64,000 nt of DNA. It comes from Candidatus Latescibacterota bacterium. Its GTDB lineage: Bacteria; Latescibacterota; UBA2968; SICM01. The notes under the pieces were generated by a model. The model did no database searches, had not been told where the DNA came from, and saw only the letters and a program-made list of their open reading frames with translations. Position numbers and translations under genes: made by a program. Shown piece after piece: positions 6,035 to 63,214 of the stretch; the first letter of the stretch is position 1; each line of letters opens with the position of its first letter. The stretch is from NCBI GenBank assembly GCA_965217865.1, contig CBDCJO010000002.1, positions 128,001 through 192,000 of the forward strand, read 5' to 3'.

Positions 6035-6571
6035 ATGGAAGCCGGCACGGTTCAACAGATTCAGGGGCTCTCCCGGATGACGGTGGGTGAACTGCGGGAG
6101 AAGTACATCAAGGTCTTCGGGGAGGAGACCCGCTCGTACCACAAGGCGTTCCTGCGCAAGCGTATCGCCTGGCGTCTGCAGGCCCTGGCCGAGGGCAGCC
6201 TCTCGGAGCGGGCCCGGCGGCGCGCCGGGGAACTGGCCAACGATGCGGACCTGAGACTGCGCGCCCCGCGGGATCAGAGCATGCCGGGCTCGGCGGCGGA
6301 GCAGGCGCGGACGACGGCCGGTCGCCTCCCGACCTCGCGGGACCGGCGGCTGCCCCTGCCGGGGACGCTTCTGGTGCGCACCTTCCAGGGCCGCGACCTG
6401 GTGGTGCAGGTGCTCGATGACGGCTTCGCGTTCGAGGGACGCCGCTACCGGTCTCTCTCCGCCATCGCCCGGCAGGTCACCGGCAGCCAATGGAACGGCT
6501 TTGCCTTCTTCGGGCTTACCCGGGGAAAGAGGCGGAACCACAGCCGTGGATCCGGAAGGGGCAACGCATGA
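6035..6571 (+). CDS. DUF2924 domain protein
   Basis: LRKRIAWRLQALAEG, PLPGTLLVRTFQG, YRSLSAIARQVTGSQWNGFAFFGL; RBS GGAGG; ATGA overlap with the recombinase. Confidence 0.9.
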   Translation: MEAGTVQQIQGLSRMTVGELREKYIKVFGEETRSYHKAFLRKRIAWRLQALAEGSLSERARRRAGELANDADLRLRAPRDQSMPGSAAEQARTTAGRLPTSRDRRLPLPGTLLVRTFQGRDLVVQVLDDGFAFEGRRYRSLSAIARQVTGSQWNGFAFFGLTRGKRRNHSRGSGRGNA

Positions 6572-7983
6572 GCGGAACCATCCCGGCATCGTCCTCCAAT
6601 GGAATCGGAACCCTCCGCTGCGCCATCTACACGCGCAAGTCCACCGGTGAGGGACTCGAGCAGGCCTTCAACAGCCTGGACGCCCAACGGGAATCGGCCG
6701 AGGCCTGCATCGCCAGCCGGCGGCAGGAGGGCTGGGTCTGCCTTCCCGGACGCTACGACGACGGCGGCTTCACCGGCGGGAACATGGAGCGGCCCGCACT
6801 CGAACGGCTCCTGACCGGCGTCGAGGCCGGCGCGATCGACTGCGTGGTGGTCTACAAGGTGGACCGGCTGAGCCGGTCGCTGCTGGACTTCGCCCGCATC
6901 ATGGAGCGGTTCGACCGGCACGGGGTGAGCTTCGTCTCAGTCACGCAGCAGTTCAACACGACTAGTTCGATGGGGCGGCTCACCTTGAACATCCTGCTGT
7001 CGTTCGCCCAGTTCGAGCGGGAGATCATCTCCGAGCGCACCCGGGACAAGATGTCGGCGGCGCGGCGCAAGGGAAAGTGGGTCGGGGGTCTGCCGGTGCT
7101 GGGGTATGACGTGGCCCCTGGGGGCGGGCGGCTGATCGTCAACGCGGAGGAAGCGGCGCGGGTCCGGGCGATCCATCACCTCTACCTGGACCATAAGGCC
7201 TTGATCCCGGTCGTCCGGGAGATCGACCGCCGCGGGTGGCTCACGAAACGCTGGATCACCCGGAAAGGCATCGAGCGAGGCGGCAAGCCCTTCACGAAGA
7301 ACAGCCTGCACCGGCTGCTGACCAACGTCATCTATGCGGGGAAGGTCCGGTACAAGTGCGCCCTCTATGAGGGGGAACACGACGCCCTGGTTGACGCCGG
7401 CCTGTGGCAGCGGATCCAGGACGCGCTCCGCACGAACGCCCGCACCGGAGGCAGGGAGGTGCGCAACAAATACGAAGCGTTGCTCAAGGGGTTGCTGTCC
7501 TGCACACCGTGCGGGACGGGCATGGCGCACGTCTGTACCGGCAGGAACGGAAAACGCTACCGTTATTACGTCTGCCGGAATGCCCGGCAGCGGGGCCGGT
7601 CGTCGTGTCCGGGCAGGTCCCTCAACGCCCACCAGATCGAAACCGCGGTGGTGGAGCACGTCCGCGGCATCGGGATGAACCAACAGGCCGTGGCGGCCAC
7701 GGTGGCCAAAGCGCGGGAACAGCGGCTGACCGCTCTCCGGGAAGAGGCTCCCGCTCTCGAGCGGGAAGCCGTGGATGAAAGCGACCTGGCCCGGGCCCTG
7801 GCGGTCTTCGACCCGGTCTGGACGGCGCTGGCCCCGCGGGAGCAGGCCCGGAGACTCCGGCTGCTCATCGAGCGGGTCGGCTACGACGGACGGGACGGCA
7901 CGGTGACCGTCACCTTTCGCCCACCCGGCATCGAGACGCTGTGCCGGAAGGCGGGTCTCGACGGACAGGAGGTCATGCGATGA
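6568..7983 (+). CDS. Large serine recombinase (resolvase + recombinase + Zn-ribbon)
   Basis: AIYTRKS catalytic serine motif, VYKVDRLSR, CTPCG...YYVC...C zinc ribbon; ATG at 6568 overlaps the upstream stop. Confidence 0.92.
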   Translation: MSGTIPASSSNGIGTLRCAIYTRKSTGEGLEQAFNSLDAQRESAEACIASRRQEGWVCLPGRYDDGGFTGGNMERPALERLLTGVEAGAIDCVVVYKVDRLSRSLLDFARIMERFDRHGVSFVSVTQQFNTTSSMGRLTLNILLSFAQFEREIISERTRDKMSAARRKGKWVGGLPVLGYDVAPGGGRLIVNAEEAARVRAIHHLYLDHKALIPVVREIDRRGWLTKRWITRKGIERGGKPFTKNSLHRLLTNVIYAGKVRYKCALYEGEHDALVDAGLWQRIQDALRTNARTGGREVRNKYEALLKGLLSCTPCGTGMAHVCTGRNGKRYRYYVCRNARQRGRSSCPGRSLNAHQIETAVVEHVRGIGMNQQAVAATVAKAREQRLTALREEAPALEREAVDESDLARALAVFDPVWTALAPREQARRLRLLIERVGYDGRDGTVTVTFRPPGIETLCRKAGLDGQEVMR

Positions 7984-13043: not shown

Positions 13044-15168
13044 GCACGCACTCAATTGGGAAACTGAGGAAAAGGTTGCCAAGAAACGGGGAGTGGACAA
13101 ACGAGGACCCAAGAGCGACGAAGCCTACGTCCGCGAGGTCCTGGGCGACATGGCGAATGCCCGGAATGTCCTGATCATCAACGATGAAGCACATCATGCG
13201 TGGCGCGTTCCTGCTGGATCCAAGGTCAAAGGCATCGCCAAGGATGAGATAGAGGAAGCTACCAAGTGGGTCGGCGGCCTGGATCGAATCCATAAGGCGC
13301 GGAGCATTCTCGCTTGCTACGACTTCTCCGCCACGCCCTTCGCGCCGTCAGGCAAACGGAGTTCCGAGGAGGCGTTGTTCGGCTGGATCGTGAGTGATTT
13401 CGGCCTGAACGACGCCATCGAGTCCGGTTTGGTCAAGACCCCGCGCGTCGTGATTCGCGACGACGCGGTGCCCAACGCCAAAACCTACAAATCCCGCCTC
13501 TACCACATCTACAACGATGTCGAGGTCAAGGACGACCTGAACCGGCGGGCCAAACCCGAGGAACCCCTGCCGGACTTGGTCATGAACGGCTATTACCTTC
13601 TCGGCTACGATTGGCGCGAAACCGCCGAGGATTGGGCGGCACGACCGGACAGCACCCCGCCGGTAATGATCACCGTCGCCAACCGCACCGAGACGGCGGC
13701 CCGGATCAAGTATGCGTTCGACCATAGAAAGGTGCGTATCAGTGAACTATGCGACCCTAAGCGGACCCTCCACATTGATTCGAGGGTTCTGGGCGAGGCC
13801 GAGGCCGCCGAGGAACCGATCGCGGAGGTCGGTGCTGGCGAGAGCGAGGAAAACGAGGGCAGCAGCCACACACGCAAACTGACCAGGAAACAGCAGGCCG
13901 AGTCGCTGCGCCGGCAAGTGGATACCGTGGGCCGGCCCGGCAGGGAGGGCGAGCAGATCCAGAACGTGATCTCCGTCGGAATGCTGTCCGAGGGTTGGGA
14001 CGCGAAAACCGTGACACACATCATGGGTCTGCGCGCATTCAGCAGCCAGCTTCTTTGCGAGCAGGTCGTCGGACGCGGCCTGCGTCGCACGACTTATGAT
14101 GTGAACGCGGACGGTCTATTCGAAGCTGAGCACGTCAACATATTCGGGGTACCCTTCACCTTCCTGCCACACGAGGGCGGGGAAGATGGTCCGCCGCCAC
14201 CACCAAAGCCGAAGACCGCCATCGAGCCGGTCTCGGACAAGGTGGCTTTTGAAATTTCCTGGCCGAATGTGCTCCGTGTAGAGCATACCTACCGCCCGCG
14301 CTTGTCACTGGAATGGGAAAAAGTGAAGCCCCTTGAGCTGGATGCCTCTCAGACGGCCAAAGTCGCCGAGCTTGCCCCAATCGTCGAAGGCAAGCCCGAT
14401 ATGACGAAGATCAATGCCATCGACTTGCAGAAGCTGGCACAGAAGTTCCGTACGCAGCGAATCATCTTCGAGACCTCTCGGGATGTTTACGATCAGATGC
14501 GACAGAATTGGTCGGGCAAGAAAGCCTCCTTGTTGGCCCAGTTAGTACGGCTGGTCGAGCAATTCATATGTTCGGACAGGATCCGCATCACTCCCGCGCT
14601 ATTCCTCCACGACGATCTCACGCGCCGGCTTATCATCACACTCAACATGAACAAGGTCGTCCAACATATCTCGGAGGCAATCCGCTTCGAGAACACCCAG
14701 AGCCTGGATCTCGTGTTCGATCAGGATCGACCCATTCGTTCAACCAACGACATGGGGACGTGGTTCACCGGCAAGCCTTGCGAGCGCACGGCGCGCAGCC
14801 ATATCAATTTCTGTGTCTATGACAGCACTTGGGAAGCATCGGAAGCCTTTGTGCTGGATCACAGCCCCGAGGTGGCCGCTTGGGTGAAAAACGATCATCT
14901 GGGCTTCGAAGTGTTCTATGTCTATCGCGGCGTGGTACGGAAGTACCGTCCGGATTTCCTTATCCGGCTAAAGTCCGGTGACATGCTGGTATTGGAAACC
15001 AAGGGGGAGGACGACGAACAGAACCAAACCAAACGCCGGTTCCTCGACGAATGGGTCACCGCCGTCAACGCGCATGGGGGCTTCGGCCGTTGGGTGTGGG
15101 ATGTATCTCGAGCCCCCAGTGAGGTTCATGGCATTCTTGCGCACCATGCGGGCGCCAGCCCCGCTTGA
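13044..15168 (+). pseudogene. Type III-like restriction endonuclease Res (BPTD_3080-like), 5'-truncated
   Basis: HALNWETE..., INDEAHHAW, FSATP, LSEGWD, EQVVGRGLRR, YRPDF...VLETKG; Walker A region is missing. Confidence 0.85.
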
Positions 15169-53649: not shown

Positions 53650-54119
53650 AGTCAACGGCACCGCCATCTCGAACTATTGTACCGGTCCTCCGAAGCAGCC
53701 GCGGCAGCGTATCACTTGGAGAATACCTGCAGCTCCTGAAGGAGAAACTCGACCTGGAAAGAAAGGGAAAGGCTCTCGCGTCTTTCCTAGGTGTTGAATC
53801 TGATTTGATTCCAAAGTTAGAGACAAATACGGTCTCAATAGTGTCAATACCATTGCGTGAATTATATTCCATGGGTCGTAGCATAGGACTGAATACTGGC
53901 ACCTACCTTGAACTTCTTAGGAAGTCACATAGGCTTCACAACATCGGACCTAGATATAAAGGAGCTGCCAGGTATGATTCTAGGGAGGGAACCAAAGGGA
54001 AGGAGCAATCAATGAAAATCGCCTATGAGGAGCTGCTTCTCAAAGGTAAAGCAGAAGAAAGAGATAATGATCTGGAATCGCATCTGCACGCTCTGAGAGA
54101 GATGTTGGAAAAGAGCTAA
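53650..54119 (+). CDS. HTH-like protein, 5' end uncertain or truncated, coupled to ImmA
   Basis: SLGEYLQLLKEK...LASFLGVESDLIPKLE Xre-like helix pattern; TAATG overlap with the next gene. Confidence 0.45.
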
Positions 54120-54610
54120 TGGAAGAACTCCCAAGGAAAAGAACAGGCTACTGCAGGATGGCAGCGCGGAGTCTGCTTTCGAGATACAGCAAAGGAGCAG
54201 GTGATATCAGACCGCCAATTCCTGTCTGTGATATAGCTAAGTTTAATGGCTATAAGGTGGTGCTCCTTGAAACACTGACGGACAAACACTCGGCCATTGT
54301 GGACTTGCATGAGAAACTTATTGGAGTGAATAAGAAGCATCACTCACACAGGAGAAGGTTCTCCATAGGCCACGAACTCGGCCACATCTATCTTGAACAT
54401 CCTTCGGAAGACGAGCAATCTGAAGAGGAAGTGAAGTATTTTAACCTCGAAGCGAACGAATTCGCCGGTGAGCTACTTGTACCTCTACATTATCTGAAAC
54501 TCGAATTAAAGCAATGCAAGAATATGGATCAGCTTGCGAATCATTTCAACGTGAGTCCCGAAGTGGTATTCAGGAGGATCTCTTCCCAAGGGCTGTTGTC
54601 ATACATATAG
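54119..54610 (+). CDS. ImmA/IrrE-family zinc metallopeptidase
   Basis: RRRFSIGHELGH, EANEFAGELLVP, LANHFNVS. Confidence 0.92.
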   Translation: MEELPRKRTGYCRMAARSLLSRYSKGAGDIRPPIPVCDIAKFNGYKVVLLETLTDKHSAIVDLHEKLIGVNKKHHSHRRRFSIGHELGHIYLEHPSEDEQSEEEVKYFNLEANEFAGELLVPLHYLKLELKQCKNMDQLANHFNVSPEVVFRRISSQGLLSYI

Positions 54611-55165: not shown

Positions 55166-55414
55166 ATGAATGGTGACACGCAAATTATCGTGAGTGGTCG
55201 TGAGTACAAGGTCTCTGGCAATGTCGTGACCTACGAGCAGGTCGTGAAGATCTGGAACGAGCTCCATGATGCAGAGAACAAGCACATCATCGGCACGCCC
55301 GGCATCGACTACGAAGACAGCCTGAAAGGCGAGGACGGTGTCCTCCTGCCGGGCAAGGACGTTGAAGTCAAGGACGGCACGAGCTTCTCGGTAGACCCCG
55401 AGCATGTCTCGTGA
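55166..55414 (+). CDS. Ubiquitin-like (multi-ubiquitin family) protein
   Basis: QIIVSGRE...VTYEQVV...IDY...G.LLPGKDVEVKDGTSFSV beta-grasp pattern; RBS GGAG. Confidence 0.8.
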   Translation: MNGDTQIIVSGREYKVSGNVVTYEQVVKIWNELHDAENKHIIGTPGIDYEDSLKGEDGVLLPGKDVEVKDGTSFSVDPEHVS

Positions 55415-56592
55415 GGGACCGTCTCTCCACGTTCGCTGAGCAGGCCGGGTTTGCCGTCAGGGTCGATTCCGACGTCGTCCTGGCCGTCCGGGTTCCTTGT
55501 CTGCTTGCAGACGGGGTTGTTGGCACTTGTACCATTGAGAAGTCCTACGACCCTATGAACGGGAAACCGAATGACCGGATAGGTGGCGCAGTCCATGCGG
55601 TGCGGATCACCGCTGACGAAGAGCACGACGGGCGCGTGTACCACGCGGACGGGAACCCGATTGAGAGCTACATCGCCGGCGACGGCAAGACCTGGTCGAA
55701 CATCTCCATCCGGAAAGGTAGCCAAAACAGCCCGGAGGAGGACGTGTCGGCGAGCGACTTGATCCACCGCTATGCGAAGCAGATCGTCGGGGCCGTGTCG
55801 GCGGACGGCTACTCCGAAACCGCTTCTCTCGGGAGGCGGGGTCCGTTCAAGATCCCGAACACTTTCGAGGCACGAGCGGCGATAGGCTCGGTTCAGGATC
55901 GCATCCGTGATCAGAGCATTGCGATCATCGGCTTGGGCGGAACGGGCGCCTACGTCCTAGACCTTATTGCGAAGACGCCAGTGGCGGAAATCCATCTTTT
56001 GGATTCCGACGACGTTGACTGGCACAACTTCATGCGCTCACCGGGCGCACCTACTGTCGAGGAGATTGAGTCGCGTCCCAAGGGGCGCCTGCGCAAAGTG
56101 GACTACTACCATTCCAAGTATGCCTCCCTCCGGGAAGGCATCCACCCGCACGCTGTTCGAGTGGACAGCCCGTCCATATTCGCCGAGTTTCTGTCGGCGC
56201 ATCCCGTCGACTATGTCTTCGTGTGTATCGACCAACTGACCGACGGCGATTCGCCGCGTCAGAACGTCGTCTACTGCGCGCTCTCAGCGGCGGAGGTCCC
56301 GTTCATAGACTCGGGTGTGAGCATTACGCTGGAAGACCACGCCGTCAGAGGGGCTGTGACGACGAGCGCCTATGCCGCAGGCTCTCGCGCGTGGAAGGAT
56401 GCCATTCCGAATGCCAGAGTCGAGGGCAATGTCCCCGGCTACCGCAACGTCCAGCTGCCGGAAGTGAACGCGTTGGCGGCGTCGCTTGCCGTGATGGAGT
56501 GGCGGCGTCGCACGGAACAGTATGTTTCGGGGTCGGCTTCGTTCCTCCACAAGTTCCGGCTCGAGACGCCGCGCATTGTCACAGCAGACTGA
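55411..56592 (+). CDS. E1/ThiF-family adenylyltransferase with an N-terminal DUF6791-like domain
   Basis: IAIIGLGGTGAYVLDLIAKTPV, D.D...HNFMRSPGA, YRNVQLPEVNALAA; GTGA overlap with the Ubl stop. Confidence 0.85.
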   Translation: MRDRLSTFAEQAGFAVRVDSDVVLAVRVPCLLADGVVGTCTIEKSYDPMNGKPNDRIGGAVHAVRITADEEHDGRVYHADGNPIESYIAGDGKTWSNISIRKGSQNSPEEDVSASDLIHRYAKQIVGAVSADGYSETASLGRRGPFKIPNTFEARAAIGSVQDRIRDQSIAIIGLGGTGAYVLDLIAKTPVAEIHLLDSDDVDWHNFMRSPGAPTVEEIESRPKGRLRKVDYYHSKYASLREGIHPHAVRVDSPSIFAEFLSAHPVDYVFVCIDQLTDGDSPRQNVVYCALSAAEVPFIDSGVSITLEDHAVRGAVTTSAYAAGSRAWKDAIPNARVEGNVPGYRNVQLPEVNALAASLAVMEWRRRTEQYVSGSASFLHKFRLETPRIVTAD

Positions 56593-56601
56593 CTCGCAGG
56601 A

Positions 56602-57027
56602 ATGACGCCCGTGAAACTCCGCCCCGTCTTCGTAGACGTATTGCCCGATTTTGACGCAATCAAAGCCGGTGAGCTCTGGATTAGCCACAAGTACCGGACT
56701 GTCAACCTGCGCTGCCCCTGCGGTTGCGGCGATCTGACAGTGCTGTCTCTCCACCCAAGCCGCTGGCACGTTCATTTCGATGGCAAGTCGGTCTCTCTGG
56801 ACGGTCCTAGGGGTGGGTCCGTGTGGGCCAATTCCGGCTGCGGCAGCCACTACTTCATAAGGAACAACGCTGTCATTTGGGCGCGTAGAATCGATCCAGG
56901 CCGTCATTCGGAGTATGCCCAAGTCGAACGGACGCGGCTGATTGCGTCTCAACGGAGCCGTCTGGCTTGGCGCTCCTGGCTCAAAGGTGTTTTCCGCTGT
57001 CTGTCGCTAGGGAGTTGGCGTAAGTAG
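56602..57027 (+). CDS. DUF6527-family protein (putative peptidase)
   Basis: GELWIS...CPCGCG...W...FDG..VSL...CGSHYFIRNNAVIW. Confidence 0.85.
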   Translation: MTPVKLRPVFVDVLPDFDAIKAGELWISHKYRTVNLRCPCGCGDLTVLSLHPSRWHVHFDGKSVSLDGPRGGSVWANSGCGSHYFIRNNAVIWARRIDPGRHSEYAQVERTRLIASQRSRLAWRSWLKGVFRCLSLGSWRK

Positions 57028-57775: not shown

Positions 57776-60700
57776 TTGTCGACCGGTCGAATAACCACCA
57801 CGCGACGCGAAAACAGGTCTATGAATACAACCAGATACAGCCATCCCTCCTCAAGTGTGTTGCGCGCATGCCTGTTCGCATTGGTCTGTCTCACCTTCTC
57901 GTCTGTCGGGGGATATGCTTCTCCTCAGCCATCGGAAGCCGACAACGTGCATTTTTGCCGACCCCTCGATTTTGAAGAAACGAGAGACCGCGATAGCTCC
58001 TATGCCGCTCGCAAGCAGGCGTTTGACTTGAATGTTGGGGAACCCCGCACCGTACGGATGATCTACTTCTTGCCCAATGACCGCCCGTTTCGCGCAGAAG
58101 TGGTTCAGCGGATGAAAGATGAGATTCGCCAGATTCAGGCCTTCTATGCAGAACAGATGCAGGCGCACGGATACGGGAACAAAACCTTCCGCATTGAAAC
58201 GGATGCGCAGGGCGAGCCGATGGTTCATCACGTGGATGGTCAACACCCCGATAGTCACTATCTTGACAACACATTCCAGGCTATGAATGACGAGATTGAA
58301 CAGGTGTTTGATCGTGATGCGAACATTTACTTCACCGTCATTGACAATAGTATAGATGGAATTCGTACTGGGCGTGTTTGGAATGCGGGAGGAACAGGAG
58401 GCGACCGGGGAAAAAATGCTGGCTTTGTGTTGGTTCCTGGGGGATTTAGCTTCAGGACGGCGGCACATGAACTTGGACATGCTTTCAGATTGAAGCACGA
58501 TTTCAACGATGATACGTACATCATGTCGTATGGCGGCGGCCAGCGACGCTCTCTATCTGCGTGCAATGCCGAATTTTTGGCTGTGCATCCCTACTTCGAT
58601 CCCAGTGTTGAAGCGCAAGAAGCTCCGCCGCCGACAATCGAACTCATTTCACAGACCGGCTATCCGGCAGGCTCAAGAAGCGTCTCCGTTCAACTCGAAG
58701 TCAGCGACCCGGAAGGACTTCACCAAGTGCTCCTGTTCGTTAGAACAAGAGAAACACACTACGCCGCCGGATCGCTTGAAGTGAAGGCGTGTCGTGGATT
58801 GAAGGGCGCAAGAGAAGCCGTCGTTGAATTTGATTATAACGGTGTTATCCCATCTGATGGTTTGACGAGTCTTTCCAACCCTGACGCGCATCCGATTCAT
58901 GTCGAGGCCGTTGATACGGATGGGAATGTGGGCTATGCGTATTTTACCCTTGTGAAAATTTCGCCACAACATATCGCCACCCTGGGGGGGCATACGCGTT
59001 TTGTCCGATCTGTTGCGTTTTCACCCGATGGCACGACCCTCGCTTCGGGGTCACAGGATAGCACAGTCAAGCTGTGGAATGTTGCGACACGAACAAATAT
59101 CGCCACCCTGGGACACACGCATTTGGTTCGTTCTGTGGCATTTTCACCCGACGGAACAACCCTCGCTTCAGGGTCGAATGATGAAGCAGTTAAGCTGTGG
59201 GACATTGCGACACGAACAAACATCGCCACCCTTGAGGGGCATACGCGTGTTGTCCGATCTGTTGCGTTTTCACCCGATGGCACAACACTCGCTTCAGGGG
59301 CAGCGAGCGAAATCAAGCTATGGGACGTGGCGACAGGACGCAATATCGCCACCCTTGGGCATCCGTATATTGTCGACGCTGTTGCGTTCTCGCCCGATGG
59401 AACAACGCTCGCTTCAGGATCGGATGATGAAACGGTCAAGCTGTGGGACATTGCAACGCGAACAAATATCGCTACCCTGGAGGGGCATAAGTCCTGGGTC
59501 AATTCGGTGTCGTTTTCACCCGACGGGACAACGCTCGCTTCAGGATCGGATGATGAAACGGTCAAGCTGTGGGACATTGCAACGCGAACAAATATCGCCA
59601 CCCTTGAGGGGCATAAGTCTTCTGTCCGTTCTGTTGCGTTCTCGCCCAATGGCACGACCCTCGCTTCGGGGTCACGGGATAACGCTTCAGGGTCATTGGA
59701 TAACACGGTCAAGCTGTGGGACGTGGCGACGGGACAAAATATCGCGACTTATAGGCATAGGGATAAGCATTCTGGTCAGGTGCAATCTGTCTATTCTGTA
59801 GCGTTTTCACCCAATGGCACGACCCTCGCCTCGGGGGCAGGGTCTTGGGATGGGAATGGCACGGTCATTCTGTGGGATGTATCTGGGCGGTTACGACCCC
59901 GTCCTCGAACGCTTGTGAAAATCTCAGGCGACAACCAGCAGGGCACGCCCGGTGCCGCGTTGTCGAACCCCATGGTCGTTGAAGTGAACGATCAGTACGA
60001 TCATCCCTTACCGGGTGCGCAAATCATGTTTACGGTCACCGCGGGCGAGGGGAGGCTCAGCGGGAGATTCACTGTCGAGCACGCAAAGACCGGTGCCAAC
60101 GGCAGAGCAGAGAACACTCTGACACTTGGGAGCATTCCGGGGCCGAACACCGTTGAGGTATCTGTCACTGGACTTGAGCCTGTGACCTTCAACGCTGTGG
60201 GAGTTGGAACGTCCACCACATCAATCATGGGTGGTGATTATCGGACATGGCATTTACCCGATGGCGCAATAATCCGCCTGGGAAAAGGACGCATTGGTGA
60301 GGGCGACAGGGCAGTGGCGTTTTCGCCGGATGGTCAACGCCTCGCCGTGGCAAGTGGTATCGGTGTCTGGCTTTACGATGTGGCGACCTCTCGTGAACTC
60401 GCGCTATTCACCGGACACACGGGTGATGTCAGGACCGTGGCGTTCTCTCCCAATGGCACGATGCTGGCTTCCGGGTCTTATAATCACACAGGGTCACGAG
60501 ATAGTGGTACGCTCAATCTGTGGAACGTGGCGACAGGAGAAAATATCGCCACCCTTGGGGGGTACAACCGCACTTGGCGGGAGTCTGTCCAGTCTGTGGC
60601 GTTCTCACCCGACGGCACAACACTCGCCTCGGGGTCTCATGGTGATATCAAGCTATGGGACGTAGCGACACGGACAAATATCGCCACCCTTGAGGAGCAT

Positions 60701-61318
60701 ACGGAGTGGGTCTTTTCTGTGGCATTTTCACCCGATGGCACAACACTCGCCTCGGGATCACAGGACCGCACGGTTAAACTGTGGGATGTGGCGACGCGAA
60801 CAAATACCGCTACCCTGAGGCATGGGACTGGGGACGAGGGCATCATCCGTTCTGTTGCGTTCTCACCCGACGGCACAACACTCGCCTCGGGAGCGTGGGC
60901 TAAAACGGTCAAACTGTGGAACGTGACGACAGGAGAAAATATCGCCACACTAAAGCATCATACGTATAATGTCGAGGCCGTGGCGTTTTCACCCGATGGG
61001 ACGACACTCGCTTCAGGGTCTTATGATGATGTCAACCTATGGGACGTAGCGACGGGAGTAAATATCGCCACCCTTGCACATACGAGTACGGCTTTTTCTG
61101 TGGCGTTCTCACCAGACGGCACAATGCTCGCTGCAGGATTACGGGATGATGGAACGGTCAGACTATGGAATTTCACAACACAAAACATCGCCATACTAAG
61201 GCATAGTACCAGGGTTGAATCTGTTGCGTTTTCACCCGATTCCAGTACATTCGGTTTGAAAAGGAAAACGCTCAATGCGTTGGATTCTCGGGCGGGCCGC
61301 TATATCTTATGTCCGTGA
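57776..61318 (+). CDS. Zinc metallopeptidase + WD40 x7 + Ig-like + WD40 x8 surface protein; native start and C-terminus both appear lost
   Basis: AAHELGH; 15 (A/S)FSP(D/N) blades; KISGDNQQG Ig-like domain; junctions at about 57852 and 61245. Confidence 0.88.
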   Translation: MSTGRITTTRRENRSMNTTRYSHPSSSVLRACLFALVCLTFSSVGGYASPQPSEADNVHFCRPLDFEETRDRDSSYAARKQAFDLNVGEPRTVRMIYFLPNDRPFRAEVVQRMKDEIRQIQAFYAEQMQAHGYGNKTFRIETDAQGEPMVHHVDGQHPDSHYLDNTFQAMNDEIEQVFDRDANIYFTVIDNSIDGIRTGRVWNAGGTGGDRGKNAGFVLVPGGFSFRTAAHELGHAFRLKHDFNDDTYIMSYGGGQRRSLSACNAEFLAVHPYFDPSVEAQEAPPPTIELISQTGYPAGSRSVSVQLEVSDPEGLHQVLLFVRTRETHYAAGSLEVKACRGLKGAREAVVEFDYNGVIPSDGLTSLSNPDAHPIHVEAVDTDGNVGYAYFTLVKISPQHIATLGGHTRFVRSVAFSPDGTTLASGSQDSTVKLWNVATRTNIATLGHTHLVRSVAFSPDGTTLASGSNDEAVKLWDIATRTNIATLEGHTRVVRSVAFSPDGTTLASGAASEIKLWDVATGRNIATLGHPYIVDAVAFSPDGTTLASGSDDETVKLWDIATRTNIATLEGHKSWVNSVSFSPDGTTLASGSDDETVKLWDIATRTNIATLEGHKSSVRSVAFSPNGTTLASGSRDNASGSLDNTVKLWDVATGQNIATYRHRDKHSGQVQSVYSVAFSPNGTTLASGAGSWDGNGTVILWDVSGRLRPRPRTLVKISGDNQQGTPGAALSNPMVVEVNDQYDHPLPGAQIMFTVTAGEGRLSGRFTVEHAKTGANGRAENTLTLGSIPGPNTVEVSVTGLEPVTFNAVGVGTSTTSIMGGDYRTWHLPDGAIIRLGKGRIGEGDRAVAFSPDGQRLAVASGIGVWLYDVATSRELALFTGHTGDVRTVAFSPNGTMLASGSYNHTGSRDSGTLNLWNVATGENIATLGGYNRTWRESVQSVAFSPDGTTLASGSHGDIKLWDVATRTNIATLEEHTEWVFSVAFSPDGTTLASGSQDRTVKLWDVATRTNTATLRHGTGDEGIIRSVAFSPDGTTLASGAWAKTVKLWNVTTGENIATLKHHTYNVEAVAFSPDGTTLASGSYDDVNLWDVATGVNIATLAHTSTAFSVAFSPDGTMLAAGLRDDGTVRLWNFTTQNIAILRHSTRVESVAFSPDSSTFGLKRKTLNALDSRAGRYILCP
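57785..57852 (-). pseudogene. IS3 integrase-core stub replacing the 5' end of the WD40 gene
   Basis: EGWLYLVVFIDLFSRRVV. Confidence 0.7.
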
Positions 61319-61509: not shown

Positions 61510-62760
61510 TCAGCTCTCCGGCACATATGGCGATTTCCATAATTGACGAATATCATCGATTTCCTGCTTGATCATGGCAATCCGCTCTATTCCCAGCCCA
61601 AAAGCAAATCCGCTTACCCTCTTGACATTGAAACCCGCCTGGCGTAACATATCTTCTTTCAGAAGCCCGCAGCCGCCCATTCCAAACCATTTTTCGTTCC
61701 ATCTGATATCGAATTCAATACCAGCTTCGACAAACTTGAAATCATGATTGCGCCAACGGATCTCGACTTCTCCGAACACCGCAATGAGCGTTTGCCGGAC
61801 CGTTGATTTCAGGGTCTGAAGATCAGCGGTTTGGTCGATGCAAATCCCATCGACTTGATGGAAGACTTTGGAATGACGTCGATCTTCACTGTCCGATCGA
61901 AAAACTCTTCCGGCCGCGAGCAAACGCACGGGTGGTTTCCGTCCCTTTATCGCCTGAAATGTCGTGTGGGTCGTATGGGTCCGGAGGATTTCATTATCGC
62001 TTACGTGATAAGCCATTTCGGTGACTCCCATATCCTCCTCCACCGATCTATCTACGATTTCCTCACCGCCGATGATTTCATACGAGGACAGGGCGGTCCG
62101 GATCTGTTCCCAGATCGTTCTGACCGGATGCCCTTCGATCTCCATCGGTTTTGGCCTATTGAGCAGCTCCCCCACCACTTTCTCGCTGAAACGTTCATCA
62201 GGTGAATGATCCTTCAGGGATTCGCTGACCATTTCGATCATCCTTTCTTTTAATCTCTTTCTGGAGTCGTGCAGTCGCTTTTTGACGGTGGTCACGGGCA
62301 ACTCCAGAAAATCGCCGATTTCTTTTTGAGAATATCCATCGATGTAGAACAAAGCTGTCACGGTCCTTTCGTGTTCCGCGAGGGTCCGAAGGGCCTGGAT
62401 CACTTTTTCCTTCAATTCTTTCGCTTCCATTATTTCATCGGGAGAAGGCTCAGATGAGGTTATCTCAGTCGTGTCTTCAAGCGAAATTGTTGGAACCGGC
62501 CTGTCCCGCGTGAACCGGTCGCAATGCTTGAAGATGATCTTTCGGAACCATCCGGGGAAAGCATCAGGATTTTGAAGCTGCGAAAGTTTCAAGAAGGCTT
62601 CGATGAATGCCTCCTGCGCGGCATCCTCGGCTAACTGAAAGTCATTGAGGAGCGAGTAGCAATAGCCCACGGCCATATCCTGGAAGCGTCGAACGATCGT
62701 TCCATATGCGTTTAGGTCGCCGGACTTGGTCCGAAGGATTAAAGATTGGAGTTCTTCCAC
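61510..62760 (-). CDS. ECF sigma factor fused to a PheRS-alpha-like (class II aaRS) catalytic domain
   Basis: Sigma2 AEDAAQEAF...FPGWFRKI, sigma4 YSQKEIGDFLELPVTTVKKRL; then HPV, LRTHT, GRVFRSD, HSKVFHQVDG, GCG, GFAFGLGIERIAM...DDIR. Confidence 0.9.
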   Translation of the reverse strand: MEELQSLILRTKSGDLNAYGTIVRRFQDMAVGYCYSLLNDFQLAEDAAQEAFIEAFLKLSQLQNPDAFPGWFRKIIFKHCDRFTRDRPVPTISLEDTTEITSSEPSPDEIMEAKELKEKVIQALRTLAEHERTVTALFYIDGYSQKEIGDFLELPVTTVKKRLHDSRKRLKERMIEMVSESLKDHSPDERFSEKVVGELLNRPKPMEIEGHPVRTIWEQIRTALSSYEIIGGEEIVDRSVEEDMGVTEMAYHVSDNEILRTHTTHTTFQAIKGRKPPVRLLAAGRVFRSDSEDRRHSKVFHQVDGICIDQTADLQTLKSTVRQTLIAVFGEVEIRWRNHDFKFVEAGIEFDIRWNEKWFGMGGCGLLKEDMLRQAGFNVKRVSGFAFGLGIERIAMIKQEIDDIRQLWKSPYVPES

Positions 62761-62796: not shown

Positions 62797-62825
62797 TAAG
62801 ACCCGATTCTTCCTTTAAAGGTTAC
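62797..62825 (-). promoter_or_regulatory. Candidate ECF-type (autoregulatory) promoter
   Basis: Minus strand GTAACC-N17-GTCTTA, about 35 bp upstream of the GTG start. Confidence 0.4.
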
Positions 62826-62856
62826 TGAAGTCCTGAAGAAACTTCAATATTATTAT

Positions 62857-63000
62857 GGTAATTAGGAAGATATTGGTACCAGATTCACCAGATATGAAGC
62901 AATAATTGGGAAGAGATCCTCGTCTTCCTGGTTGAATCTGAACTCTGTTTCCTTCAGGTATAAATGGAAATGATGTCGAGGGATTCCTCTGTATTGATAT
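62857..63000 (-). mobile_element. IS1595 right-end remnant
   Basis: Near-identical reverse complement of 32380-32523 including the IR. Confidence 0.9.
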
Positions 63001-63214
63001 ACACGAGACGCCCTCGCCCGACTGCTCTCCGATTTCGACGCGCCGCCGCCCATCGGGCACCGGCTCACGCGGGAGGCTCGGCTCGACATCCGCAGCGTAG
63101 CAGCAGATCCCTTCACTTCGCCCTCGGGCTCGACCACGCGACGCCCGAACTTGAAGACGGGAACTTCCGTTCGAGCAGCCAGACGGCTGGCTGCCATGTC
63201 GGAGGCTCGGCTTC

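Follow-up and report, generated by a model that had tools for sequence, protein, structure and literature searches.

One-component ECF sigma factors with a fused extension are already known as a kind of regulator, and include ECF41 (SnoaL-like extension), ECF42 (TPR) and ECF115 (variable extensions, with a Clp protease neighbour). Aminoacyl-tRNA synthetases, for their part, have paralogues with other jobs, such as the HisRS-like domain of GCN2, HisZ and EpmA. In these proteins, as in SrmL, a class II core is reused without tRNA charging, and we know of none of the four that is fused to a sigma factor. The extensions of ECF41 and ECF42 modulate the activity of the sigma factor or are required for it, according to the supplement of PMC7826278. 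ECF264, from the Paenibacillaceae, is presented in Supplementary Text S2 of the same work (Casas-Pastor et al. 2021, PMC7826278) with a DUF1835 extension of about 350 aa and the predicted promoter GTAACCTT (-35) and GGCACATT (-10). We examined a gene of a Candidatus Latescibacterota bacterium in which an ECF sigma factor is fused to a domain resembling PheS. This fusion is real, conserved and apparently undescribed. No description of a sigma/PheS fusion was found in the literature: 'tRNA' and 'synthetase' do not occur in the main text of PMC7826278, nor 'synthetase' in that of PMC8999054, and we found no such fusion in the supplement of the former, whose tables may yet contain an entry. Among the extensions described in the text of the current ECF classification, we likewise found none that joins a sigma factor straight to the relic of an aminoacyl-tRNA synthetase.

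The gene lies near the end of the window, that is, the whole stretch of 64,000 nucleotides that was analysed (Table 1). The first-pass annotation had read it as one intact ORF encoding a complete ECF sigma2/sigma4 followed by a PheS core, and this was borne out: the ORF opens with a GTG codon and is free of internal stops, and Pfam finds all three domains in one chain. The sigma part consists of sigma2 and sigma4 with a short linker between them and without sigma3 or sigma1, which is the domain composition of an ECF, and it scores 85.9 bits with the NCBIfam sigma70-ECF family (TIGR02937; cut-off 42.9). The extension beyond the sigma factor, at 240 aa, exceeds the 50 aa used to define extended ECFs. 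The tRNA-synt_2d match covers profile positions 46-238 of 246 (E 2.6e-51), and the protein stays below the cut-off both of NCBIfam pheS (TIGR00468; 163 bits, cut-off 237) and of the SrmL family, 'PheS-related mystery ligase' (NF051887; 124.6 bits, cut-off 300; 65-85 bits for subtypes 2-4, see below). The best matches among solved structures are bacterial PheRS alpha chains. An AlphaFold2 model built from a 119-row alignment agrees with the annotated fold, its top Foldseek matches being PheRS alpha (4p71_C, rmsd 2.0 Å over 212 columns); with a mean pLDDT of 86.7 but a pTM of 0.59, each domain is placed confidently and their mutual placement is not.

Table 1. Features of the fusion gene, given as positions in the window
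Feature	Position	Strand	Basis
Predicted -35 element (GTAACCTT)	62818..62825	minus	Upstream alignment and matrix scan
Predicted -10 element (CGGGTCTT), 12 nt after the -35 box, then conserved TAGAAGG	62798..62805	minus	Upstream alignment and matrix scan
ECF sigma - PheS-like fusion gene, 416 aa	61510..62760	minus	ORF, Pfam and homologue search
Sigma region 2, residues 22-78	62527..62697	minus	Pfam PF04542 (Sigma70_r2)
Sigma region 4, residues 118-172	62245..62409	minus	Pfam PF08281 (Sigma70_r4_2, residues 118-170) / PF04545
Predicted internal start: in-frame Met177 behind a Shine-Dalgarno at codons 172-174 (GAA AGG ATG)	62230..62247	minus	Codon conservation
Predicted free protein of 240 aa (residues 177-416), with linker helices and PheS-like domain	61510..62232	minus	Inferred from codon signal
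PheS-alpha-like class II core, residues 193-410	61531..62184	minus	Pfam tRNA-synt_2d (PF01409), structure comparison
Class II motifs: motif 1 HP 211-212; motif 2 R288 and FHQxD 300-304; motif 3 R393			

A protein search returned at least 120 full-length homologues (47-94% identical, 88-100% coverage), and all 120 that were listed carry tRNA-synt_2d together with the sigma domains. In addition, a 926-nt contig from another study, with 60 differences, covers 61543-62468 and runs across the sigma/synthetase junction. A one-off chimera or a misassembly, against which the first-pass annotation had cautioned, was rejected on these two grounds. The alignment of subtype 1, to which the window gene belongs, comprises 118 homologues and the query (n = 119; one near-copy and one partial sequence were left out). 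A second form, about 24% identical, was found in the genome of a relative (locus L129), and 90 proteins were retrieved when it served as the query; those that reach 390 aa, 74 in number, make up subtypes 2 (33) and 3 (41), one without the Pfam domain being left out, and one protein assigned to subtype 3 trees nearer subtype 2. A fourth form is present in a Poribacteria-labelled genome (locus L160). The source labels of the fusions include Phycisphaerae, Planctomycetota, Hydrogenedentota, Latescibacteria, Gemmatimonadetes and Myxococcota. Within the phylum the distribution is patchy: two of the 168 genomes carry a full subtype-1 fusion and a third carries subtype 2 (at least 3/168 in total). 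In a search for stand-alone or differently fused forms, the best 150 matches in a 50%-cluster library were family members, fragments, canonical PheS and a few proteins with an extra C-terminal domain (11/150 inspected). Carriage of the fusion by phages was also considered and rejected: among 98 pattern stretches in viral contigs, none was confirmed as a relative. A 14-kb contig labelled Planctomycetota (L159) holds two divergently oriented fusion copies (6141-7394 and 13331-14449), both with the promoter motif described below.

The PheS-like domain is not a near-copy of a housekeeping enzyme, since it is 33-37% identical to seven canonical PheS taken from relatives and fusion hosts, canonical pheS of its own genome (G000) being absent from the assembly. 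As pheT (C2:5771145-5773433) runs to the end of contig 2, the missing pheS most likely lies in an assembly gap. Canonical PheS was found in 38 of 40 relatives and in five of the six other fusion hosts, none being found in the sixth (G168); together with the position of pheT at the contig edge, this led us to reject the fusion as the sole housekeeping PheS of its host. A quick IQ-TREE analysis of 63 domains placed the 28 fused ones together, separated by a single branch (99 SH-aLRT) from the 32 canonical bacterial PheS. Hence, the synthetase domains of the fusions appear to form one clade outside housekeeping PheS, although long-branch attraction is possible because the stem is long. In two families of the same class, relatives have a long PheS (open frame of about 520-560 aa; loci L102-L110), which does not group with bacterial PheS in the tree and has the look of the archaeal type.

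Three features go beyond the first-pass annotation: a promoter for the gene itself, an internal start with a predicted free product, and the use of the sigma factor as a chassis for interchangeable cargoes. Upstream alignments gave AACCTT or GTATCC, 12 nt, and (T/C)GG[GC][TA]CTT, often followed by TAGAAGG; in the window copy the motif reads AACCTT-N12-GGGTCTT, and it is conserved ahead of subtype-1 fusion genes. A promoter matrix was trained on 36 loci from other genomes and seeded with the window's own motif. Scores of at least 15 were obtained for all seven other subtype-1 loci and for 25 of 29 sister sigmas (32/36, in-sample), versus 0 of 180 shuffles. Six of 51 held-out loci scored above 19, a DUF1835 sigma among them, and the motif was absent from the single subtype-2 and subtype-4 loci. 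In the 6.43-Mb genome of the window, the best site precedes the paralogue of the fusion and the second-best the window fusion itself, while the third and thirteenth precede two lineage sigmas. There were 11 sites with a score of at least 21, against none in shuffles, and those outside the lineage lie nearly all inside long ORFs. When the core boxes alone were used, the top three of 4989 crude genes all belonged to this sigma lineage, and below that the counts matched shuffles. In five other genomes the exact pattern showed no enrichment (12 matches, 14 for the reversed control), and 4 of the 12 precede lineage sigmas. A regulon beyond the gene itself was rejected, as high sites elsewhere lie nearly all within long ORFs and the exact pattern is not enriched in the five genomes. 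We infer that the upstream motif is this sigma factor's own promoter and that the gene is autoregulated with no further regulon detectable, in a search seeded with the window motif that would miss a weak or divergent one. Methyltransferase genes adjoin four of the seven subtype-1 loci and could be co-transcribed targets in some genomes. Two more lineage sigmas with the same promoter occur in the same genome: at C2:4225018-4225665 most of the sigma factor is gone and the frame runs, by eye, into a glyoxalase/bleomycin-resistance-like domain, and at C2:4199059-4199745 the sigma factor has a short tail only.

By promoter and tree, the closest known ECF would be ECF264, although the DUF1835 that defines its extension gave no match (PF08874); the extension of the fusion is instead the PheS-alpha core (PF01409). 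Both have a long C-terminal extension and no anti-sigma factor. Compared with the ECF264 promoter given in Supplementary Text S2, the fusion motif, GTAACCTT-N12-(T/C)GG[GC][TA]CTT, has an identical -35 element in the window and a similar but not identical -10 element (GGGTCTT against GGCACATT). A Paenibacillus DUF1835 sigma (L038), used as a stand-in for ECF264, had a promoter score of 27 when held out and groups with the fusion sigma lineage (97 SH-aLRT), on a long branch. Contrary to ECF264, the named hosts of the fusion are not Firmicutes and the conserved ABC transporter neighbour is missing, and the ECF264 section of that supplement describes no internal start like the one predicted here. 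The promoters of ECF42 (TGTCGAT/CGTC) and ECF115 (ATC/CGT) differ from that of the fusion, and in comparison with ECF41, ECF42 and ECF115 the extension of the fusion is the relic of an essential enzyme, predicted as a separate product too.

The same sigma factor is a chassis that carries many interchangeable cargoes. A search with the fusion alignment yielded 80 genome loci, of which two are full fusions; 34 loci were scanned, picked for a long ORF among the 38 that matched best. Their cargoes were PheS-like in two cases, ankyrin in 18 (one with F1-beta too) and TPR in four (one under the cut-off), with two more F1-beta, one SecA, one BFN and one DUF1835, and five without a Pfam family. Judged by eye, the SecA cargo is truncated, and the F1-beta cargoes have altered P-loops and lack GERTRE, which we take to be a motif of F1-beta. 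In the sigma tree, the subtype-1 sigmas and 19 of 20 sister sigmas share a common branch (97 SH-aLRT), with subtypes 2 and 3 on a separate one; within the chassis, this tree is compatible with the subtype-1 fusions being one clade or several. The SecA and F1-beta fusions are found at L005:670-3240, L023:6001-7980, L024:5083-6699 and L032:1830-3359. At L034:6001-7346, the chassis sigma and promoter are followed by a separate +1 gene whose product is a Clp protease, a neighbour also known from ECF115, and at L044:5384-6300 by a separate +1 ankyrin gene, which is either a split form or a frameshift.

We also found a codon signal at the sigma/synthetase junction. Arg173 is encoded by AGG in 10 of 10 subtype-1 loci (8 genomes or contigs), which gives GAAAGGATG upstream of Met177; AGG accounts for 108 of 1375 other Arg codons in the same genes and for 31 of 218 Glu-Arg-Met contexts in the window's own genome. 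Anti-Shine-Dalgarno pairing of -5 kcal/mol or below was predicted at the junction in 10/10 subtype-1, 2/2 subtype-2/4 and 17/21 sister loci, compared to 19/77 and 44/196 at other Met codons; 9 of 30 sisters were dropped from this test (7 without a regex match, 2 without the Met). Met177 is retained in 116 of 119 subtype-1 proteins. As the loci are kin, no p-value is given. This pattern suggests that Met177 is used, which would release a free synthetase-like protein of 240 aa, although the internal Shine-Dalgarno may instead be a relic of a former two-gene operon.

These observations are consistent with an autoregulated sensor-and-sponge loop whose output would be its own ligand-binding domain, a reading that we favour tentatively, as quite possible though short of probable. 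The sigma factor would transcribe only its own gene, in a one-gene positive-feedback circuit. A ligand of the kept ATP/adenylate site and the widened aromatic pocket, presumably of nucleotide type and bound without tRNA charging, would bind the fused domain and thereby turn the sigma factor on, either because it relieves an inhibition that the linker or the free domain exerts, or because it stabilizes the protein. From the internal start, the synthetase-like half would be made on its own as well, and this free protein would accumulate, take up the ligand and so shield the host PheRS; the ligand might be an adenylate mimic or an aromatic-amine compound aimed at that enzyme. Since the only visible target of the sigma factor is itself, in a gene predicted to release its cargo, the cargo would be the output of the circuit. 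Against this sensor-and-sponge loop, the ankyrin and TPR cargoes of the sister sigmas bind proteins rather than small molecules, and the window copy lacks the Glu360 that its paralogue keeps.

A wider version, which we regard as rather unlikely, is a class of 'integrated decoys', in which a self-only ECF sigma factor is joined to a disabled essential target, namely PheRS alpha here and F1-beta or SecA in the sisters. An inhibitor or attacker of the real enzyme would bind the decoy, the sigma factor would amplify its own gene, and large amounts of free decoy, made from the internal start, would protect the housekeeping enzyme. If this were true, one could read from the cargoes which essential proteins are being attacked in these uncultured bacteria.

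The first-pass annotation had proposed a co-opted synthetase fold that links aromatic amino-acid, adenylate or tRNA status to transcription. The conserved ECF, the non-housekeeping domain, the lack of an anti-sigma gene and the retained ATP-site residues agree with the co-opted fold in a one-component regulator, but sensing of tRNA is not supported. The N-terminal coiled coil of PheS (PF02912) gives no match, its place being taken by the sigma factor, while a canonical PheS (L123) has it. The NFDxL..HPARD loop is absent from the fusions when compared with 21-22 canonical PheS, as the annotation had noted of its NFDxLxxPxxHPAR segment, and its loss extends to all subtypes, as does that of the RPxxFPF Arg, which just 33 of 119 subtype-1 members keep. 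No pheT adjoined the fusion among the neighbours scanned. PMC3275996 links the coiled coil to tRNA binding and reports that PheS-alpha lacks aminoacylation activity, whether on its own or as a dimer. With the tRNA arm, the loop and much of the Phe pocket lost or changed, the PheS-like domain is unlikely to charge or sense tRNA. For sensing of phenylalanine status the support is weak, since the Phe pocket is variable within subtypes as well as from one to another. At the FPF site the window copy has FKF, and in the family the first Phe is F or Y and the second varies; the conserved pocket Gln is replaced by Thr, Met or Leu in the fusions. The position of E. coli Ala294 is Gly in subtypes 2 (28/33) and 3 (41/41), and that of Thr251 is Cys (27/33 and 40/41). 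In E. coli PheRS, a change to Gly at Ala294 or Thr251 widens the pocket, as reported in PMC3275996. The NDxRF tail is replaced by LWxPPYV or AERV. In summary, the fusion shares with PheS the class II core and motifs 1-3 in order, including all the motifs quoted in the annotation, but it lacks the coiled coil, the loop, the NDxRF tail and an adjoining pheT, has an altered Phe pocket and forms a separate clade; on four tested features it falls outside PheS.

These losses bear on the proposal that the fusion is a one-component sensor of an aromatic amino acid, an adenylate or uncharged tRNA that drives a regulon made up of other genes; in this model the free domain, should it be produced, would act as a threshold-setting anti-sigma factor. 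We consider this unlikely. The fold and the ATP-site residues are kept, no anti-sigma family was found among the scanned neighbours of fusion loci, and the extensions of ECF41 and ECF42 modulate activity in the supplement of PMC7826278. However, a regulon of amino-acid genes was not detectable, and well-placed sites in the own genome occur only before genes of this sigma lineage; moreover, the tRNA-binding parts are absent, the Phe pocket is variable, and presence in the phylum is as patchy as described above.

Contrary to the tRNA-binding parts, the adenylate site is largely retained. In subtypes 1, 2 and 3, respectively, R288 is kept in 112/119, 33/33 and 41/41, F300 in 109/119, 33/33 and 41/41, Q302 in 106/119, 33/33 and 41/41, an acid at 304 in 113/119, 33/33 and 41/41, and R393 in 108/119, 31/33 and 41/41, and GIDDIR is present; we take R288, FHQ, the acid at 304 and R393/GIDDIR to be the residues that bind ATP and adenylate. 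The FHQVD that the annotation had set against the canonical FHQxE is the subtype-1 consensus (D in 97/119, E in 16/119). Its other point, the replacement of Glu360, holds for the window copy, to which WFGM is peculiar, the paralogue in the same genome reading WIEL: position 360 is E in 61, D in 13 and G in 19 of 119 subtype-1 proteins. At least one of the five core adenylate residues is missing in 23 of the 119, of which 7 keep two or fewer and are still full length, and all are gone in one protein (P0256), so nucleotide binding seems dispensable in some lineages. Hence, on these residue counts, the ATP site is likely to be used for binding in most members but not in all.

The same residues could serve an active adenylating enzyme (an EpmA-like protein ligase, a small-molecule detoxifier or a dinucleotide synthase), with the sigma factor as its private expression cassette. 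Subtypes 2 and 3 show no variation at R288 and FHQ and almost none at R393, the remodelled pocket is conserved there (acid at 262, Thr264, Gly386), sister sigmas carry enzyme-like cargoes such as BFN, and the predicted internal start would yield a free enzyme. We nevertheless think it decidedly unlikely for the window gene, whose subtype tolerates loss of the catalytic arginines R288 (7/119) and R393 (11/119) and has neither E nor D at position 360 in 45 of 119 members; nor was a conserved substrate gene found near the scanned loci.

The columns that are most invariant in subtype 1 (P203, H211, P212, E234, L259, R260, G284, R285 and F287) direct attention to a further function. The motif 1 region forms the subunit interface in class II synthetases. 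These columns lie in or around motif 1, and lineages that lose the ATP site keep those of the motif 1 region, as if the domain acted on proteins, either by pairing with host PheT or as a bait for some PheRS-attacking protein of a phage or toxin, and in this way sensed or throttled translation; other cargoes are likewise subunits of essential complexes or protein-binding repeats. Replacement of the NDxRF tail speaks against such a role, as does the lack of a confirmed relative in viral contigs, and the invariant residues may simply hold the fold. We find action on proteins very doubtful, and return to the sensor-and-sponge loop as the preferred reading.

The genome of the window contains two full copies of the fusion (91% identical), one 5'-truncated copy and one fragment. 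Between the two full copies, dN/dS is 0.22-0.23 in the sigma half and 0.22 in the synthetase half, which shows purifying selection on the fusion. A selfish or near-neutral self-expressing cassette with the cargo as a drifting relic, which the self-only predicted promoter, the patchy distribution and the four copies (two truncated) among transposase genes would suit, is highly improbable in view of this ratio in the PheS-like domain and of the length and motifs kept across subtypes that are only about 24% identical. The truncated copies lie at C2:557100-558035 (L126) and C2:272029-272316 (L127). The last 783 nt of L126 are identical to the window copy, and it keeps the internal Shine-Dalgarno and the whole predicted 240-aa short ORF; it may have arisen by duplication not long ago, or else reflect a mixture of strains (contamination 9.3%).

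Should both the self-only promoter and the second product be borne out, this gene would be a complete feedback device with its own sensing domain as output, and its logic would differ from control by a sigma/anti-sigma pair or through a regulon. It would also point to natural ligands or inhibitors of PheRS that are not yet known. The gene is small and portable and has a predicted promoter, and the modular sigma chassis might be of use for biosensors.

As in the annotation, neither pheT nor an anti-sigma gene adjoins the fusion in the window, where the gene beside it is a convergent WD40 gene; no neighbour or operon was conserved across the fusion loci, the +1 genes being different and a convergent neighbour occurring at many of them. 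The WD40 gene (57776-61318, plus strand) encodes a 1180-aa repeat protein of a multi-copy family; around 61054-61240 the contigs from other runs depart from the window sequence, which may mean that this copy has a rearranged 3' end. Just upstream of the fusion promoter, a repeated element (62848-63078) is marked by a depth spike, and its short ORF resembles what we take to be the end of an IS1595 transposase. Further away, after an IrrE/M78 peptidase gene (54119-54610), a three-gene run on the plus strand (55166-57027) encodes a multiubiquitin-like protein (PF14452), a 393-aa ThiF/E1 protein (PRK06153-like, below the cut-off) and a DUF6527 protein. This run resembles bacterial ubiquitin-like conjugation operons, and the bulk of it recurs at 99.7% near C2:3536874 of the same genome.
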